Notes: generated by a model from the letters alone, not told the origin. Positions 16,826 through 21,874 are shown, counted from the stretch's first letter. The stretch: DNA of 32,000 nt from Mycolicibacterium smegmatis (GCF_001457595.1 NZ_LN831039.1:6540001-6572000); one strand, 5' to 3'. Translations and numbers: made by a program.

Positions 16826-17458
16826 ATGACGACCGCGCTCACCGGCACCGCCACGGCGGGGGGCTCAGGCGGTGACGCGTTCCGGTCCCGCCTGCTCGAC
16901 GGGCTCTCGGCCGCCATCGACGACAAGGGTTACCGCGACAGCACCGTTGCCGACATCGTCCGCCACGCTCGCACCTCCAAGCGCACGTTCTACGACCAGT
17001 TCGCAAGCAAAGAAGCCTGTTTCATCGAGCTGCTGCGCGCCAACAACGCCGCGCTCGTCGAGCACATCCGCTCGGCCGTCCGCCCCGAGGCCGAATGGCA
17101 GGACCAGATCGACCAGGCCGTCGGCGCCTACGTCGAGCACATCGAATCCGCCCCGAGCATCACGCTGAGCTGGATCCGCGAACTGCCCGCGCTCGGCCCC
17201 GCGGCACGCCCGCTGCAACGCGACGCGATGGGGGCGCTCACCGATCTGCTCATCGACCTCAGCGACAGTCCGGGATTCCGGCGCGCCGGGCTCAACGGGC
17301 TCAGCAGGCAGATGGCCATCATCCTGCTGGGCGGTCTACGGGAACTCACGGCACTGATCGTCGAGGACGGCCACGACATCCGGGAGATCTACGAACCGGC
17401 CGTCGCGGCGTCGCGGGCGATCCTCACCGCGAGTTCAGCTGAGCACCAGGCGCGCTGA
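16826..17458 (+). CDS. TetR/AcrR-family transcriptional regulator, divergent from the P450 gene
   Basis: N-terminal HTH: GYRDSTVADIVRHARTSKRTFYDQFASKEACF. Confidence 0.88.
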   Translation: MTTALTGTATAGGSGGDAFRSRLLDGLSAAIDDKGYRDSTVADIVRHARTSKRTFYDQFASKEACFIELLRANNAALVEHIRSAVRPEAEWQDQIDQAVGAYVEHIESAPSITLSWIRELPALGPAARPLQRDAMGALTDLLIDLSDSPGFRRAGLNGLSRQMAIILLGGLRELTALIVEDGHDIREIYEPAVAASRAILTASSAEHQAR

Positions 17459-17989
17459 CTTCTCCAGGCGGCGCACGACCTGTTCGTAGGAGTCGTATCC
17501 CATGCCGGCCCACACCATGGTGCCGGTGTAGAGCAACTCGAGGGCCTCGATGACGCCGATCCTCACATCGGGGCCCAGCGCCGCGACCAGGCGCTGCCGG
17601 ATGTCGGCGCCGATACGCTGGCGCAGCGCGTCGACGTCGGGATCCTTGCCCAGCAGGGCCGTGGTCACCGCGCCCGCGAACGCGGGCTCGTCGGCCACCA
17701 GCGACGCGATGTGCTGCAGCACCTCGACCACGCGGGTCGCCGGATCCGGCGATTCGTGCACGGCGGGCGGCGCCGCGGACAGCCTGCGCCAGAACACCTC
17801 GGCGACAAGGTGTTCCTTGGACGAGAAATAGGTGTAGGCGGTTGCCGAGCCGACGCCGGCCTCGGCGGCGACGCGCCGCACCGTCAGGCCCGCGTACCCC
17901 TCGCGACTGATCAGTTCGACCGCCGCGCGTCCCAGACGTTCGACGGTGTCCGCCTGCCGTGCACTCAGACGGCGACGGGTCGACTCCAT
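17435..17989 (-). CDS. TetR/AcrR-family transcriptional regulator, candidate repressor of the adjacent GT/MT cluster
   Basis: HTH: [32 protein letters not shown] place the start at ATG 17989 ([12 protein letters not shown]); the track ORF extends to 18079 across the promoter. Its 3' end overlaps the convergent TetR gene by 24 nt. Confidence 0.85.
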
Positions 17990-17997
17990 GGCCGGAT

Positions 17998-18041
17998 CGG
18001 ACACGTGTCCGGACGCTACTACAACTGGCCGTGACCAGCAA
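17998..18041 (-). promoter_or_regulatory. Candidate sigma-A promoter plus operator of the TetR gene: TTGCTG-N17-TAGCGT-cc-GGACAcgTGTCC
   Basis: The minus strand reads ccgTTGCTGgtcacggccagttgtagTAGCGTccGGACAcgTGTCCgatccggccATG. The perfect 14-bp palindrome CGGACACGTGTCCG lies at 17998-18011, the -10 at 18013-18018 and the -35 at 18036-18041. Confidence 0.5.
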
Positions 18042-18045
18042 CGGT

Positions 18046-18729
18046 ATGTTGTCACCCATGAGCCATGCCGACACCGCACTGCCGCCCCGCGCCGAGCGTC
18101 TGTTCGCCCTGGCCGAGCAGGTCACGGGTTTCATGCCCGTCGACGAGGGCCGAGCCCTCTACGACGCGGCGGTGCGCTACCTCGGCGGCGGCGTCGGCGT
18201 CGAGATCGGCACCTACTGCGGCAAGTCCACGGTCATGCTCGGCGCGGCCGCGCAGGAGACCGGCTCGGTGCTCTACACCGTCGACCACCACCACGGCTCC
18301 GAGGAGCACCAGCCCGGCTGGGAGTACCACGACGCGTCACTGGTCGACCCGGTGACCGGCCTGTTCGACACGTTGCCGAAGATGCGGCACACGCTCGACG
18401 CCGCGGGCCTCGACGATCATGTGGTCGCCGTGGTCGGCAGGTCGCCCGTGGTCGCCAGGGGATGGCGAACCCCGTTGCGGTTCCTGTTCATCGACGGCGG
18501 TCACACCGAAGAAGCCGCGCAGCGCGACTTCGACGGCTGGGCCCGTTGGGTGCAGAAGGGCGGCGCCCTGGTGATCCACGACGTGTTCCCGAATCCCGAG
18601 GACGGCGGTCAGGCGCCGTTCCACATCTATCAGCGGGCCCTGGCCACCGGCGCGTTCCGCGAGGTGTCCGCGACCGGTTCGATGCGCGTGCTGGAACGGA
18701 TCTCGGGAGAGCCCGGCGCGCTCGACTAG
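18046..18729 (+). CDS. Class I SAM-dependent methyltransferase (Methyltransf_24 / O-methyltransferase family 3-like)
   Basis: SAM motif I is [17 protein letters not shown], followed by ..[10 protein letters not shown].. and ..GGALVIHDV. The start is ATG 18046 or 18058; the track ORF from 17959 would overlap the TetR gene. Confidence 0.8.
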
Positions 18730-19796: not shown

Positions 19797-19802
19797 AGCG
19801 CA

Positions 19803-20525
19803 TCACCCACGGGCATCCGGTTTGGTGAAGTACAGCGCCACGCTCTTGCCGATCAGCGGGTTGAGCACCGACTCGGCGGTCCTGGTGAGCCACGGCCGGC
19901 CCATCATGTCCCACACCAGCAGCTGGTGGTATGCCTTGACCGCCGGGTGGTCGTTCTTCTCGGTCCCCACAAGGCACTTGAGCCACCAGTACGGCGAGTG
20001 CAGCGCGTGCTCGTGGTGGGTGTGGGTGAGTTCCAGACCGTGTGCGAGCACCTTGTCGCGCAACTCGTCGGCCTTGTAGATGCGGATGTGGCCGCCCTCG
20101 TTGGCGTGGTACTCGTCCGACAGCAGCCAGCAGATCTTCTCCGGCAGCCACCGCGGCACCGTGATGGCCAGCGAGCCACCGGGTTTGAGCACGCGGACCA
20201 GTTCGGAGATCGCGCGGTCGTCCTCGGGGACGTGCTCGAGGATCTCCGAGGCGATCACGCAGTCGAAGGTGCCGTCGGGGTACGGCAGGTCGAGCGCGTC
20301 ACCCTTGACGGCCTCGCCTTTCGCCGTGGCGGGCGCCTCGCCCGCTTCGGCCATGGCCTGCAGCATCTCGTCGACGCTGTTGAGATCGGCCACGCTCTGG
20401 TCGAAGCCGATCACATGCGCCCCGCGGCGGAACGCCTCGAACGTGTGCCTGCCCGCGCCGCACCCGACGTCGATCACCGACGTGCCCGGGCCGACACCGA
20501 GCCGGTCGAAGTCGACTGTCAGCAC
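19803..20525 (-). CDS. Class I SAM-dependent methyltransferase (Methyltransf_11 type)
   Basis: Motif I is VIDVGCGAGRHT, followed by ..FDCVIASEILEHV.. and ..LKPGGSLAITVP. The GTG start overlaps the GT4 stop by 7 nt (GTGCTGA). Confidence 0.85.
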   Translation of the reverse strand: MLTVDFDRLGVGPGTSVIDVGCGAGRHTFEAFRRGAHVIGFDQSVADLNSVDEMLQAMAEAGEAPATAKGEAVKGDALDLPYPDGTFDCVIASEILEHVPEDDRAISELVRVLKPGGSLAITVPRWLPEKICWLLSDEYHANEGGHIRIYKADELRDKVLAHGLELTHTHHEHALHSPYWWLKCLVGTEKNDHPAVKAYHQLLVWDMMGRPWLTRTAESVLNPLIGKSVALYFTKPDARG

Positions 20526-21760
20526 GCCTTGACCCCCATCCGGTTCTGTGCCTGCTCGTACACCGCAACCGTCTGTGCGGCAACGGACTCCCAGCTGAAG
20601 ACATCAAGTGCACGCCGGCGTCCGGCTGCGCCGAGGCGGCGGCGTTCGGACGGCGAGTCCAGCAGTTCGCCCAGCACCGCGGTCAGCTCGTCGACGTCGG
20701 CCGGGCGGACCAGCCGCGCGCACGATCCGTCGGTGCCCACGACCTCGGGCAGCGCGCCCGCGCGGCTCGCGACGATCGGGGTGCCGCTGGCCATGGCCTC
20801 CACGGCGGGCAGCGAGAAGCCCTCGTACAGCGACGGGATGCACGCGACCTCGGCCGATGCCAACAGGCCTGCCAGCTCCTGATCGGACAGCCCGCTGGAG
20901 ATGTGGACGATGTCGGAGATGCCCAGCTCGGCGATGAGCTTCTCGGTGGGACCGTTGGGTTCGAGCTTGCTCACGAGTTGCAGGTCGAGGTTGCGTTCCA
21001 CGCGCAGGCGCGCGACCGCGTGCAGCAGGTGGCTCACACCTTTGAGCGGAACGTCGGCCGACGCGATCGCGATGATGCGTCCACTCACGCGCTGCTCGGC
21101 GGGTTTGAACAGTTCGGTGTTCACGCCGAGCGGCACGATGTGCAGCTGATCGGACGTGACGCCGAAGTCCGCGGCGATGTCCGCGGCCGACGACGAGGAC
21201 ACCGTGAGCAGTTCGGGAATCTGGCGCGCGACCTTCTTCTGCATCTCGGCGAAGCCGTACCAGCGGCGCACGAGCGGCTTGCGCCACCACTTGGCCGCCG
21301 CGACGTCGACGACCTTGTCGCGCGTGATCGGGTGGTGCACGGTCGCCACCACGGGTAGGCCGAGCTTCTCGATCTTGAGCAGACCGGTGCCCAGGCTCTG
21401 GTTGTCGTGGACGACGTCGAACTCGTCGCGGCGCGCCGCGAGGATCCGCGCGGCGCGCATCGTGAACGTGCGCGGTTCCGGGAAGCCGGCCGACCACATG
21501 GTCAGCAGTTCCAGCGCGTCGATGCCGTCGCGGATCTCCCGCGGGTGCGGCACGCGGAACGGATCGGGCTCGCGGTACAGATCCAGGCTGGGCACCTTGG
21601 TCAGCGTGACGCGGGGGTCGAGGCCCTCCGGATAGGGCTGGCCCGAGAACACCTCGACGTCGTGGCCGAGTTCGGCCAGACCGCTGCTCAGGTGACGGAC
21701 GTAGACGCCTTGACCGCCGCAGTGGGTTTTGCTCCGGTACGAAAGCAGTGCGATGCGCAT
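20519..21760 (-). CDS. GT4-family (GT-B fold) glycosyltransferase
   Basis: N-terminus MRIALLSYRSKTHCGGQGVYVRHLSSGLAELGHDVEVF. The C-terminal block reads IPSLYEGFSLPAVEAMASGTPIVASRAGALPEVV, the E-x7-E region typical of GT4. Confidence 0.9.
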   Translation of the reverse strand: MRIALLSYRSKTHCGGQGVYVRHLSSGLAELGHDVEVFSGQPYPEGLDPRVTLTKVPSLDLYREPDPFRVPHPREIRDGIDALELLTMWSAGFPEPRTFTMRAARILAARRDEFDVVHDNQSLGTGLLKIEKLGLPVVATVHHPITRDKVVDVAAAKWWRKPLVRRWYGFAEMQKKVARQIPELLTVSSSSAADIAADFGVTSDQLHIVPLGVNTELFKPAEQRVSGRIIAIASADVPLKGVSHLLHAVARLRVERNLDLQLVSKLEPNGPTEKLIAELGISDIVHISSGLSDQELAGLLASAEVACIPSLYEGFSLPAVEAMASGTPIVASRAGALPEVVGTDGSCARLVRPADVDELTAVLGELLDSPSERRRLGAAGRRRALDVFSWESVAAQTVAVYEQAQNRMGVKAC

Positions 21761-21828
21761 ATCAACTCACCCGACGGCAGGAATCGCGCTGAGCTGGGAA
21801 GACGCCTTCACGCGCCGACTCCGAAACC

Positions 21829-21874
21829 TCTGGACATGTGTCCAGACTATAGTTTGACGACCTACCGGGCGCAA
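21829..21874 (-). promoter_or_regulatory. Candidate sigma-A promoter plus operator of the GT4 operon: TTGCGC-N17-TATAGT-ct-GGACAcaTGTCC
   Basis: The minus strand reads cgtgcgTTGCGCccggtaggtcgtcaaacTATAGTctGGACAcaTGTCCagagg. The 18-bp palindrome TCTGGACA-TG-TGTCCAGA lies at 21829-21846, the -10 at 21846-21851 and the -35 at 21869-21874. The architecture is the same as at 17998-18041. Confidence 0.55.

Follow-up and report, generated by a model that had tools for sequence, protein, structure and literature searches.

The window analyzed here is a stretch of 32,000 bp of the Mycolicibacterium smegmatis genome (NZ_LN831039.1:6540001-6572000). Its central part carries a TetR-family regulatory gene, four genes for methylmannose polysaccharide (MMP) enzymes and two copies of a palindromic operator, as follows.

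17435..18004, minus strand: ltmA (MSMEG_6479), TetR-family regulator, 189 aa (Pfam TetR_N, E 4e-15), start GTG 18004
17998..18011, no strand: operator O1, CGGACACGTGTCCG, core 17999-18010; published LtmA site in "Ms6482p" (footprint, EMSA; PMC3526308)
18013..18041, minus strand: ltmA promoter, -10 TAGCGT (18018-18013, positions -14 to -9), -35-like TTGCTG (18041-18036)
18045..18729, plus strand: meT1 (MSMEG_6482), MMP 1-O-methyltransferase, also called "MepM" (PDB 6G7D, E 5e-120; Pfam Methyltransf_24)
18726..19796, minus strand: mmpH (MSMEG_6481), MMP endomannosidase/hydrolase (PDB 7QSJ, E 9.5e-205; NCBI name "prenyltransferase")
19803..20525, minus strand: meT3 (MSMEG_6483), putative MMP 3-O-methyltransferase (Pfam Methyltransf_11, E 2e-22; cluster position as in PMC9883506)
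20519..21760, minus strand: manT (MSMEG_6484), MMP alpha-(1->4)-mannosyltransferase (PDB 7QSG, E 8e-226; GT4 Pfam domains)
21808..21837, minus strand: leaderless upstream ORF (MSRGFGVGA, stop), a "Novel ORF" with a leaderless ATG in S2 Table of Shell et al. 2015 (PMC4633059)
21823..21852, minus strand: published LtmA DNase I footprint, -92 to -63 from the manT ATG, spanning the -10 box (-15 to +15)
21829..21846, no strand: operator O2, TCTGGACAcaTGTCCAGA, core 21832-21843, within the published footprint
21846..21874, minus strand: manT-operon promoter, -10 TATAGT (21851-21846, positions -14 to -9), -35-like TTGCGC (21874-21869)

The regulatory gene is ltmA. Its product is identical to strain mc2155 ABK73853.1 at 188 of 189 residues (the single change is G150 instead of D) and has an N-terminal TetR-type helix-turn-helix (Pfam PF00440, 55.6 bits; cut-off 24). 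Window positions 18003-17983 match a published qPCR primer, the window also contains the published footprint 30-mer and the 14-mer CGGACACGTGTCCG without a mismatch, and four mc2155 coordinates fit the window through one offset, 6,525,180. The preliminary description of this DNA placed the start at ATG 17989, but the true start is the GTG at 18004, 15 nt away and inside the palindrome. This GTG is kept in all 73 orthologues whose alignment begins at residue 1, and in 68 of them the codon equivalent to 17989 specifies leucine (CTG 39, TTG 25, CTT/CTA/CTC 4; ATG in the other 5); the annotated length of the database orthologues is mostly 189 aa. An AF2 model of LtmA (pLDDT 88.8) has nine helices in an all-helical two-domain fold, no residue of the helix-turn-helix (36-75) varies among 31 orthologues, and a Foldseek search of the PDB returns KstR, 3BJB and Thermus FadR at probability 1.0 with TM scores up to 0.77.

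By homology, the genes flanked by the two operators (meT1, mmpH, meT3 and manT) are the MMP cluster; the PDB matches of MeT1, MmpH and ManT mark the cluster enzymes as orthologues of the characterised M. hassiacum MMP enzymes, and the four-gene arrangement is the one described previously (PMC9883506). The gene earlier called prenyltransferase-like thus encodes the endomannosidase MmpH. In 72 of 80 loci, as in the window, meT1 converges on manT, meT3 and mmpH, which share one strand (in some of these 72, insertions of 1-4 kb push meT1 away). In the window these three genes are closely packed, and the CTAG said to be common to the convergent stop codons is indeed present as a meT1/mmpH overlap at 18726-18729. 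The meT1 start had been put at 18046, a position that falls within its -10-like box TATGTT (18045-18050); the orthologue-conserved, leaderless ATG is 12 nt away at 18058. Orthologues of meT1 keep a TAnGTT box 7-8 nt ahead of ATGAGC, and the M. goodii gene is called at 223 aa.

The window holds two exact copies of the palindrome GGACAnnTGTCC, at 17999-18010 and 21832-21843, against an expectation of about 0.05; none of 100 shuffles of the window gives two copies (mean 0.05). The exact GGACA-N2-TGTCC pattern is, as had been claimed, found at just these two places, and a scan of spacings of 0-12 nt across the window gave no other pair in a promoter context. Read on the minus strand, site 1 is TTGCTG, 17 nt, TAGCGT, cc and GGACACGTGTCC (18010-17999), and site 2 is TTGCGC, 17 nt, TATAGT, ct and GGACACATGTCC (21843-21832), so that at both sites 2 nt separate a TANNNT box from the downstream palindrome. 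The palindrome and promoter layout given previously therefore stands, while the end coordinates given with it (17998 and 21829) need a shift of 1-3 nt; in full, the palindromes measure 14 bp (O1) and 18 bp (O2).

This common architecture is kept in 80 mycobacterial genomes; in alignments of the orthologous loci the palindromes, the -10 boxes and their spacing are all retained, and both promoter-operator blocks are nearly invariant between scrambled flanks. In 80 manT-promoter sequences CGCGTTGCG and GTCAAACTATAGT, separated by 13 partly variable nt, are invariant or nearly so, whereas top-base frequencies in the flanks are 0.3-0.5 and third codon positions of manT average 0.67. The O2 16-mer CTGGACACATGTCCAG is identical in 78 of 80 genomes, and the exact motif precedes manT in 79 of 80 loci, the eightieth being truncated. 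Ahead of ltmA the motif (exact or with one mismatch) lies at a constant 21-nt offset in 73 of 73 genes; O1 variants over these loci have one mismatch only, and the promoter consists of the conserved blocks CCGTTGCTGG and GTTGTAGTAGCGTCC with a variable 10-nt stretch between them. No recurrent third site was found in 1.15 Mb of loci. The neighboring TetR gene MSMEG_6480 serves as an internal control, since it has its own twin palindrome of another sequence (GGTAC-N6-GTACC, 69 of 69 loci). One metagenome-assembled genome that does not carry ltmA nevertheless retains the manT operator, which weighs against the repressor reading given below. To judge from these alignments, the sites, -10 boxes and spacing are evidently under strong purifying selection in the rapidly growing mycobacteria.

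Each palindrome is centered on the +1 of a leaderless transcript, the ltmA GUG in one case and the AUG of the 9-codon manT upstream ORF (21837) in the other. The expectation that the palindromes cover the transcription starts is thereby borne out by ribosome-profiling 5' boundaries from mc2155, which coincide with the RTG in the middle of each (6543184(-) = window 18004, ltmA; 6547017(-) = window 21837, manT upstream ORF; Shell et al. 2015 S2 Table, PMC4633059). A third boundary, 6543238(+), corresponds to the meT1 start at 18058, and all three come from the less stringent list in that study, which requires a ribosome footprint and an RTG, not an RNA-seq boundary or a 5'-triphosphate map. ANNNT lies at -13 to -9 of 18004 and 21837 and at -12 to -8 of 18058, and each of these starts has C at -1; the ltmA and manT upstream ORF starts have a purine at +1 (G for ltmA). 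C at -1, a purine at +1 and this ANNNT spacing are usual for M. smegmatis promoters, which have no -35 consensus (PMC6448022), and it is for the latter reason that an E. coli-consensus promoter scan could be expected to find neither promoter, as was the case (each -35 fits only 3 of 6 positions). An RTG stands at the start position of the upstream ORF in 80 of 80 operators, and the ORF's stop precedes manT in 79 of 80 loci.

The paired LtmA sites are, in their essentials, a rediscovery of published work. Using one-hybrid, ChIP, EMSA and DNase I footprinting, Li & He (NAR 2012; PMC3526308) found LtmA bound at both sites; they also gave the core motif GGACANNTGTCC and reported loss of binding when the inverted repeat is mutated. 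Their footprint sequence CTATAGTCTGGACACATGTCCAGAGGTTTC equals window 21852-21823 exactly. The protein (one residue apart), the two sites, the footprint and the motif are the same as here, so binding of both palindromes by the TetR protein, which the preliminary description had proposed, is established for identical sequences. In that paper Ms6482 is "hypothetical" and Ms6484 a glycosyltransferase, whereas both are here assigned to the MMP cluster, and transcription starts, autoregulation and repression go unmentioned, whereas here the sites lie on leaderless +1 positions. What is added is the MMP identity of the flanked genes (mmpH included), the near-invariance of both blocks, the +1 at the palindrome centers and the repressor geometry of the footprint. 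LtmA was presented in 2012 as a global c-di-GMP-responsive activator (PMC3526308), and in the published view it is more than a local autoregulator. In our view the evidence for a global regulon is weak; the criterion of up to 2 mismatches behind its 229 promoters is not selective, giving 10 matches in the window against 20 +/- 4.7 in shuffles.

The position of the palindromes directly over the starts suggests that the effect of LtmA on these genes is negative and not positive. The best explanation, to which we assign a probability of roughly 0.6, is that LtmA represses the manT-meT3-mmpH operon and, by autoregulation, ltmA. Bound LtmA, lying over the -10 hexamer and the +1, would exclude RNA polymerase and so repress both its own promoter and that of the operon, with occupancy of the operators presumably set by a ligand. 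The footprint covers the -10 box and the +1 and therefore has the geometry of a repressor despite the "activator" label, and a precedent exists in the repression of mce4 by LtmA reported in 2026 (PMC13139416). Counted against repression is that the sole sign published for LtmA in 2012 is activation, of other genes. Ribosome footprints are present on all three transcripts (ltmA, meT1 and the manT upstream ORF), so there is expression of these genes during ordinary culture, and repression would be at most partial. c-di-GMP is reported to strengthen LtmA binding; an acyl-CoA-type inducer is a plausible alternative ligand because in fold LtmA most resembles the acyl-CoA-binding proteins KstR and FadR, although the basis of this idea is fold similarity only, at 20-22% identity. 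Control of "all four enzymes" by LtmA, as first proposed, is not secure because O1, which is centered on the ltmA +1 and start codon, lies at -59 to -48 relative to the meT1 start, upstream of the meT1 promoter.

This placement leaves some room for a mixed role, in which the shared operator shuts the ltmA promoter but stimulates or spares the divergent meT1, with manT repressed separately. The O1 center precedes the meT1 start by 53.5 bp and lies beyond the meT1 -35 region, and the two promoters are back to back (the ltmA -35 is only 3 bp from the meT1 -10), so occupancy of one could affect the other. We nevertheless regard such an arrangement as unlikely; there is no known activation surface on a TetR-family dimer, and, with some 30 bp protected from DNase, the bound dimer would extend to about -41 relative to meT1, where it might still obstruct polymerase. 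Outright activation of the local promoters, with c-di-GMP strengthening binding and so raising MMP gene expression, would agree with the report that target expression falls in the deletion strain and rises on overexpression, with a 2- to 8-fold induction at raised c-di-GMP (Li & He 2012), and with the stronger EMSA and footprint signals obtained for the manT promoter when c-di-GMP is added (PMC3526308). However, a footprint over the -10 box and from +1 to +15 is incompatible with known activation mechanisms, and the footprinted manT promoter is the only one backed by conservation and ribosome-profiling boundaries. Moreover, the main-text qRT-PCR concerned lipid genes chosen with up to 2 mismatches and not manT or meT1, the c-di-GMP effects in vitro were seen at 0.3-1.5 mM against 4.5-28 uM measured in cells, and mce4 is repressed by LtmA. 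Local activation accordingly seems distinctly improbable.

The two remaining readings deny the palindromes a role as protein operators. CTGGAC-ACAT-GTCCAG could form a 6-bp hairpin, and on the opposite strand the palindrome is picked up by a terminator scan, but an RNA hairpin at the transcript 5' ends is effectively refuted: the left arm is not transcribed because transcription starts at the palindrome middle, one-sided changes are uncompensated (AGACA in 15 of 73 ltmA sites), an Rfam search gave no match, and protein binding and its loss on mutation are published. A functionless chance likeness has nothing in its favor other than the shortness of the motif, and can be given practically no weight in view of the shuffle counts, the invariance of the sites over 80 genomes and the LtmA binding already reported, which refutes it.

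The manT upstream ORF, which is on the list of leaderless short ORFs located upstream of annotated genes (Shell et al. 2015; PMC4633059), resembles their "coupled" class in ending 1-2 nt ahead of manT in many species. It differs from the other leaderless ORFs in that its start codon is the center of a repressor-type operator and in that its peptide varies between clades, without conservation.

KstR (Rv3574), the mycobacterial TetR repressor of cholesterol catabolism, is the nearest solved fold to LtmA (TM 0.72-0.77), and it too is a dimeric regulator whose palindrome has a 2-bp center and overlaps promoters. The two proteins are only 20-22% identical, and LtmA was rejected as a KstR equivalog (NCBIfam NF033703, 43.2 bits against a cut-off of 280). 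CoA thioesters bring about the release of KstR. The KstR operator sequence, TnnAACnnGTTnnA, is unlike that of LtmA. As in TetR/tetO-type pairs, ltmA is divergent from a putative target gene (meT1) over a short intergenic region (53 bp), and the promoter of the regulator itself overlaps a palindromic operator of 14-18 bp, an arrangement in which autoregulation is expected. Unlike those pairs, the ltmA system has a second identical operator 3.8 kb away at the convergent operon, ltmA, whose mRNA is leaderless, has both its start codon and its +1 within the operator, and the reported ligand increases binding and does not cause release.

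The two promoters that the preliminary description placed upstream of the TetR gene (ltmA) and the GT4 gene (manT) have, on re-reading of the window sequence, the shared architecture it reported, as follows.

Promoters and operators of the two genes (window sequence)
Site 1, minus strand, operator O1 at the start of ltmA: TTGCTG 18041-18036, N17, TAGCGT 18018-18013, cc, GGACACGTGTCC 18010-17999
Site 2, minus strand, operator O2 upstream of manT: TTGCGC 21874-21869, N17, TATAGT 21851-21846, ct, GGACACATGTCC 21843-21832

The full palindromes are longer than the core (CGGACACGTGTCCG, 17998-18011, and TCTGGACAcaTGTCCAGA, 21829-21846). 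The inverted pattern GGACAnnTGTCC, which had been seen only at these two places in the window, indeed occurs nowhere else in it (0.05 copies are expected, and none of 100 shuffles contained two), and other half-site spacings gave no comparable pair there. A scan with the E. coli promoter consensus, which is uninformative for mycobacteria, found neither promoter because each -35 agrees with it at only three of six positions, and an Rfam scan of window 16500-22500 returned no match.

The genes under these operators are the four-gene methylmannose polysaccharide (MMP) cluster of Maranha et al. (2023; PMC9883506). For the divergent methyltransferase the match is PDB 6G7D, the MMP 1-O-methyltransferase MeT1 (E 5e-120), and for the GT4 gene it is 7QSG, the ManT of M. 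hassiacum (E 8e-226); the gene between manT and mmpH (meT3) encodes a Methyltransf_11 enzyme by Pfam, and the TetR gene carries the Pfam domain PF00440. The ORF previously called "prenyltransferase-like", a word that arose because NCBI names MmpH relatives "prenyltransferase", is really the methylmannose polysaccharide hydrolase MmpH (PDB 7QSJ, E 9.5e-205); the convergent stop codons of meT1 and the operon do share one CTAG (18726-18729), as described. The polysaccharide MMP is found inside the cell; it is thought to act as a buffer for long-chain acyl-CoA and to aid growth in the cold, and the MMP cluster is not known to occur in M. tuberculosis. The text of PMC9883506 nowhere mentions a regulator, promoter, operon or transcription, and a literature search that paired MMP with a regulator or with TetR returned nothing of relevance.

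The TetR gene is MSMEG_6479, the ltmA of Li and He (2012; PMC3526308); its protein is identical to M. smegmatis mc2155 ABK73853.1 except at one residue, and the published ltmA qPCR primer is window 18003-17983. Binding of the TetR to both palindromes, the central claim of the preliminary description, was established by these authors in 2012, who found that LtmA binds "Ms6482p" and "Ms6484p" by bacterial one-hybrid, ChIP and EMSA. Their DNase I footprint, CTATAGTCTGGACACATGTCCAGAGGTTTC at -92 to -63 from the manT ATG, is the same as window 21852-21823; CGGACACGTGTCCG was needed for binding in "Ms6482p", mutation of the inverted repeat (shared core GGACANNTGTCC) abolished binding, and 0.3-1.5 mM c-di-GMP strengthened it. 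In M. tuberculosis, Li and He (2012) take Rv0767c to be the LtmA orthologue, whereas for Balhana (2015) the counterpart of Rv0767c is MSMEG_5860.

Two of the start codons first assigned here are not the conserved ones. ATG 17989, taken as the TetR start, is CTG, TTG, CTT, CTA or CTC in 68 of 73 orthologues, and an in-frame GTG at 18004, within the palindrome, is present in all 73 and gives the 189 amino acids of most database entries. The start assigned to meT1, 18046, falls in a conserved TAnGTT box (18045-18050); the ATG conserved among orthologues is 18058. S2 Table of Shell et al. (2015; PMC4633059) contains 5′ boundaries from ribosome profiling that coincide with an RTG, and those of this region are given here (mc2155 coordinates minus 6,525,180 are window positions).

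Ribosome-profiling 5′ boundaries of Shell et al. (2015; PMC4633059)
6543184, minus strand: window 18004, the GTG in palindrome 1
6543238, plus strand: ATG, MSMEG_6482; window 18058, the conserved meT1 ATG
6547017, minus strand: ATG, "Novel ORF"; window 21837, the ATG in palindrome 2
6547516, minus strand: ATG, MSMEG_6485; window 22336, start of the F420/PPOX-class gene

The boundaries at 18004 and 21837 are the central RTGs of the palindromes, so transcripts start at each palindrome's centre, and the proposal that the palindromes cover the transcription starts is upheld; this evidence is strong but indirect, since the boundaries belong to the less stringent list of Shell et al. (2015). The -10 boxes lie at -14 to -9 (for meT1, -13 to -8); position -1 is C and +1 a purine. 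For M. smegmatis, Martini et al. (2019) describe an ANNNT placed somewhere from -13 to -6 and find no consensus for the -35, a pattern that the three window promoters match. Upstream of manT, MSMEG_6485 (21881-22336), which carries the annotation "ATP binding protein", encodes an F420-dependent PPOX-class oxidoreductase (TIGR03618, E 7.5e-39) and is leaderless in both lists of Shell et al. (2015). Between its stop codon and the manT -35-like box there are 6 nt and no terminator, so that read-through would run into LtmA as a roadblock.

Eighty orthologous loci from species-level genomes, fetched via MmpH alignment (MmpH 79-93% identical to that of the window), were compared. Orthologue alignment had been proposed as a check on the palindromes, and the exact motif lies upstream of manT in 79 of the 80, the contig of the eightieth ending short. 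Among the 80 sequences formed by these 79 loci and the window, the 16-mer CTGGACACATGTCCAG is unchanged in 78, TATAGT is present in every one, and the register of the manT promoter block CGCGTTGCG...GTCAAACTATAGT is constant; in contrast, the top-base frequency of flanking columns is 0.3-0.5, and manT third codon positions average 0.67. Upstream of the TetR gene, 73 loci have CCGTTGCTGG, 10 variable nt and GTTGTAGTAGCGTCCGGACAyGTGTCCGAT, the spacing of the palindrome being kept at a constant 21 nt offset with single-mismatch variants only. The divergence of ltmA and meT1 is maintained even where insertions of 1-4 kb have moved meT1 off mmpH, ltmA adjoins meT1 in all 74 loci that carry it, and the LtmA helix-turn-helix (residues 36-75) does not change among 31 orthologues. 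No third local operator recurs in the 1.15 Mb of orthologous loci, where the 20 sites with ≤1 mismatch are sporadic, below chance and without a recurring position.

Conserved sequence also extends past the -10 hexamers (GTCAAAC before TATAGT, 21852-21858, and GTTGTAG before TAGCGT, 18019-24); these stretches fall outside the published LtmA footprint and are not accounted for by standard promoter elements, there being no TGn extended -10. The divergent meT1 promoter may have its -35 region in GTTGTAG, at the ltmA site. Loci L011-L080 (for example L016, around 4885-4900) have an extra conserved box some 20 nt ahead of the manT -35, (A/G)CTGTG(G/A)TAGTCAG, found in most species and missing in the window and its closest relatives, L001-L010; judged by its sequence, it resembles an extended -10 (TGnGATAGT) belonging to another promoter further upstream. 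L056 (8700-8830) has lost ltmA and its operator, the second TetR gene's 3′ end directly adjoining the meT1 promoter, and retains a perfect manT operator despite that loss. L072 has a frameshifted ltmA (8807-9359) and, at 4955, the sole variant operator centre, AG for CA, which still forms a GTG and whose uORF is fused to manT in frame; both loci are from metagenome-assembled genomes, so assembly errors are possible. L052, L055, L057 and L059 (including M. neglectum) have neither meT1 nor ltmA within 7 kb of mmpH and keep a perfect manT operator; the meT1-ltmA pair is presumably elsewhere in their genomes.

An RTG occupies positions 7-9 of the operator in 153 of 153 cases, both operators included. 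At manT it is the ATG of a leaderless short ORF, MSRGFGVGA (21837-21808), and in 79 of 80 loci this operator-born uORF has its stop ahead of manT. The leader between palindrome and manT ranges from 40 to 119 nt and belongs to several unrelated sequence classes; in about half of the loci the uORF spans all of it, with its end 1, 2 or 7 nt short of the manT start codon in a conserved GTGAnnTGAnn-ATG motif that has stop codons in two frames. Leader lengths in these whole-leader classes (50, 71, 95 and 104; 83, 86, 110, 116 and 119) are all 2 mod 3, with two exceptions at 118, and the events behind them are not independent, since some look like duplications of one unit. The uORF stop positions and leader lengths suggest that the uORF may be translated and coupled to manT. 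Leader-length differences are mostly multiples of 3, and the uORF peptide differs between clades because a 1 nt indel turns MSRGFGVxA into MSREVRSx.

Li and He (2012; PMC3526308) called LtmA a global activator from qRT-PCR of lipid genes; these targets were picked by an upstream search that allowed up to two mismatches and gave 229 promoters, and LtmA ChIP covered 37 promoters. Matches with ≤2 mismatches number 10 in the window versus 20 ± 4.7 in shuffles, and the criterion therefore gives no enrichment of real sites. The main text of that paper never mentions autoregulation, transcription starts or repression and has no Ms6482 or Ms6484 expression figures in the ltmA mutant; a 2026 paper (PMC13139416) reports that mce4 is repressed by LtmA. 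With +1 at 21837, the published footprint runs from -15 to +15 and includes the -10 hexamer, and ltmA's own promoter has the same operator-to-+1 geometry. From a footprint over the -10 hexamer and +1 we infer promoter occlusion, by which LtmA would be an autoregulated repressor of ltmA and the manT-meT3-mmpH operon. At meT1 the operator centre is 53.5 bp upstream of the gene's start, and LtmA may act on this gene in either direction. The proposed TetR autoregulon acting from both ends of the cluster is partly supported, its binding and start positions resting on published experiments.

The AF2 model of LtmA (pLDDT 88.8) has as its nearest folds KstR (TM 0.72-0.77), the Rhodococcus relative 3BJB and Thermus FadR, all at 20-25% identity. 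The ligands of KstR and FadR are CoA thioesters. With 43 bits, LtmA is far below the 280-bit cut-off for a KstR equivalog and does not count as one. An acyl-CoA inducer of LtmA, were there one, would make a neat feedback loop. In a joint reading to which we assign a probability of roughly 0.4, LtmA would be chiefly a dedicated, autoregulated repressor of MMP synthesis acting at the +1 of leaderless transcripts. Among these transcripts would be that of the uORF, which has the operator centre as its start codon and would, in many species, be translationally coupled to manT; in the same reading, c-di-GMP and/or an acyl-CoA-like ligand would set the MMP level, and the published "global activator" regulon would be mostly indirect.

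What is added to the published binding is the synthesis that the MMP cluster promoters are where LtmA has its two perfect, deeply conserved sites and that these lie on the +1 of leaderless mRNAs, one of them an operator-embedded uORF, a geometry that argues for repression. It casts doubt on two features of the published regulon, its sign ("activator") and its breadth (229 promoters at ≤2 mismatches). LtmA, possibly c-di-GMP or acyl-CoA, and MMP would form a readily testable circuit; ltmA deletion strains exist (Li and He 2012; NgAgo 2025). A 2026 paper (PMC13445384) names MSMEG_6482 "MepM", a host methyltransferase for phage tail protein methylation that is required for infectivity of progeny phage, and does not note that it is the MMP 1-O-methyltransferase MeT1 (18058-18729) or that its promoter region is bound by LtmA. 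LtmA papers do not mention MMP, and neither the MMP papers nor PMC13445384 mention LtmA. Given the requirement for meT1, LtmA may affect phage susceptibility.

A second TetR gene (16826-17458, plus strand) is divergent from a P450 gene (15393-16814, minus strand), and the intergenic 16736-16825 contains two copies of GGTAC-N6-GTACC (16755-16770 and 16788-16803) about 33 bp apart; two copies, 31-34 bp apart, are present in all 69 orthologous pairs and nowhere else in the loci, which provides an internal control for the LtmA comparison. This TetR was rejected as the binder of the LtmA palindromes, with 25% identity to LtmA (E 0.057) and a conserved twin palindrome of its own. It is probably MSMEG_6480, which Balhana (2015) considers the Rv0135c orthologue, the Rv0135c group having the strongest motif of Table 2 of that paper (E 6e-80). 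The MSMEG locus tags are out of positional order here (6479 ltmA, 6480 second TetR, 6481 mmpH, 6482 meT1). The two TetR genes are convergent and share 24 nt at their overlapping 3′ ends (17435-17458), an arrangement kept in most orthologous loci.
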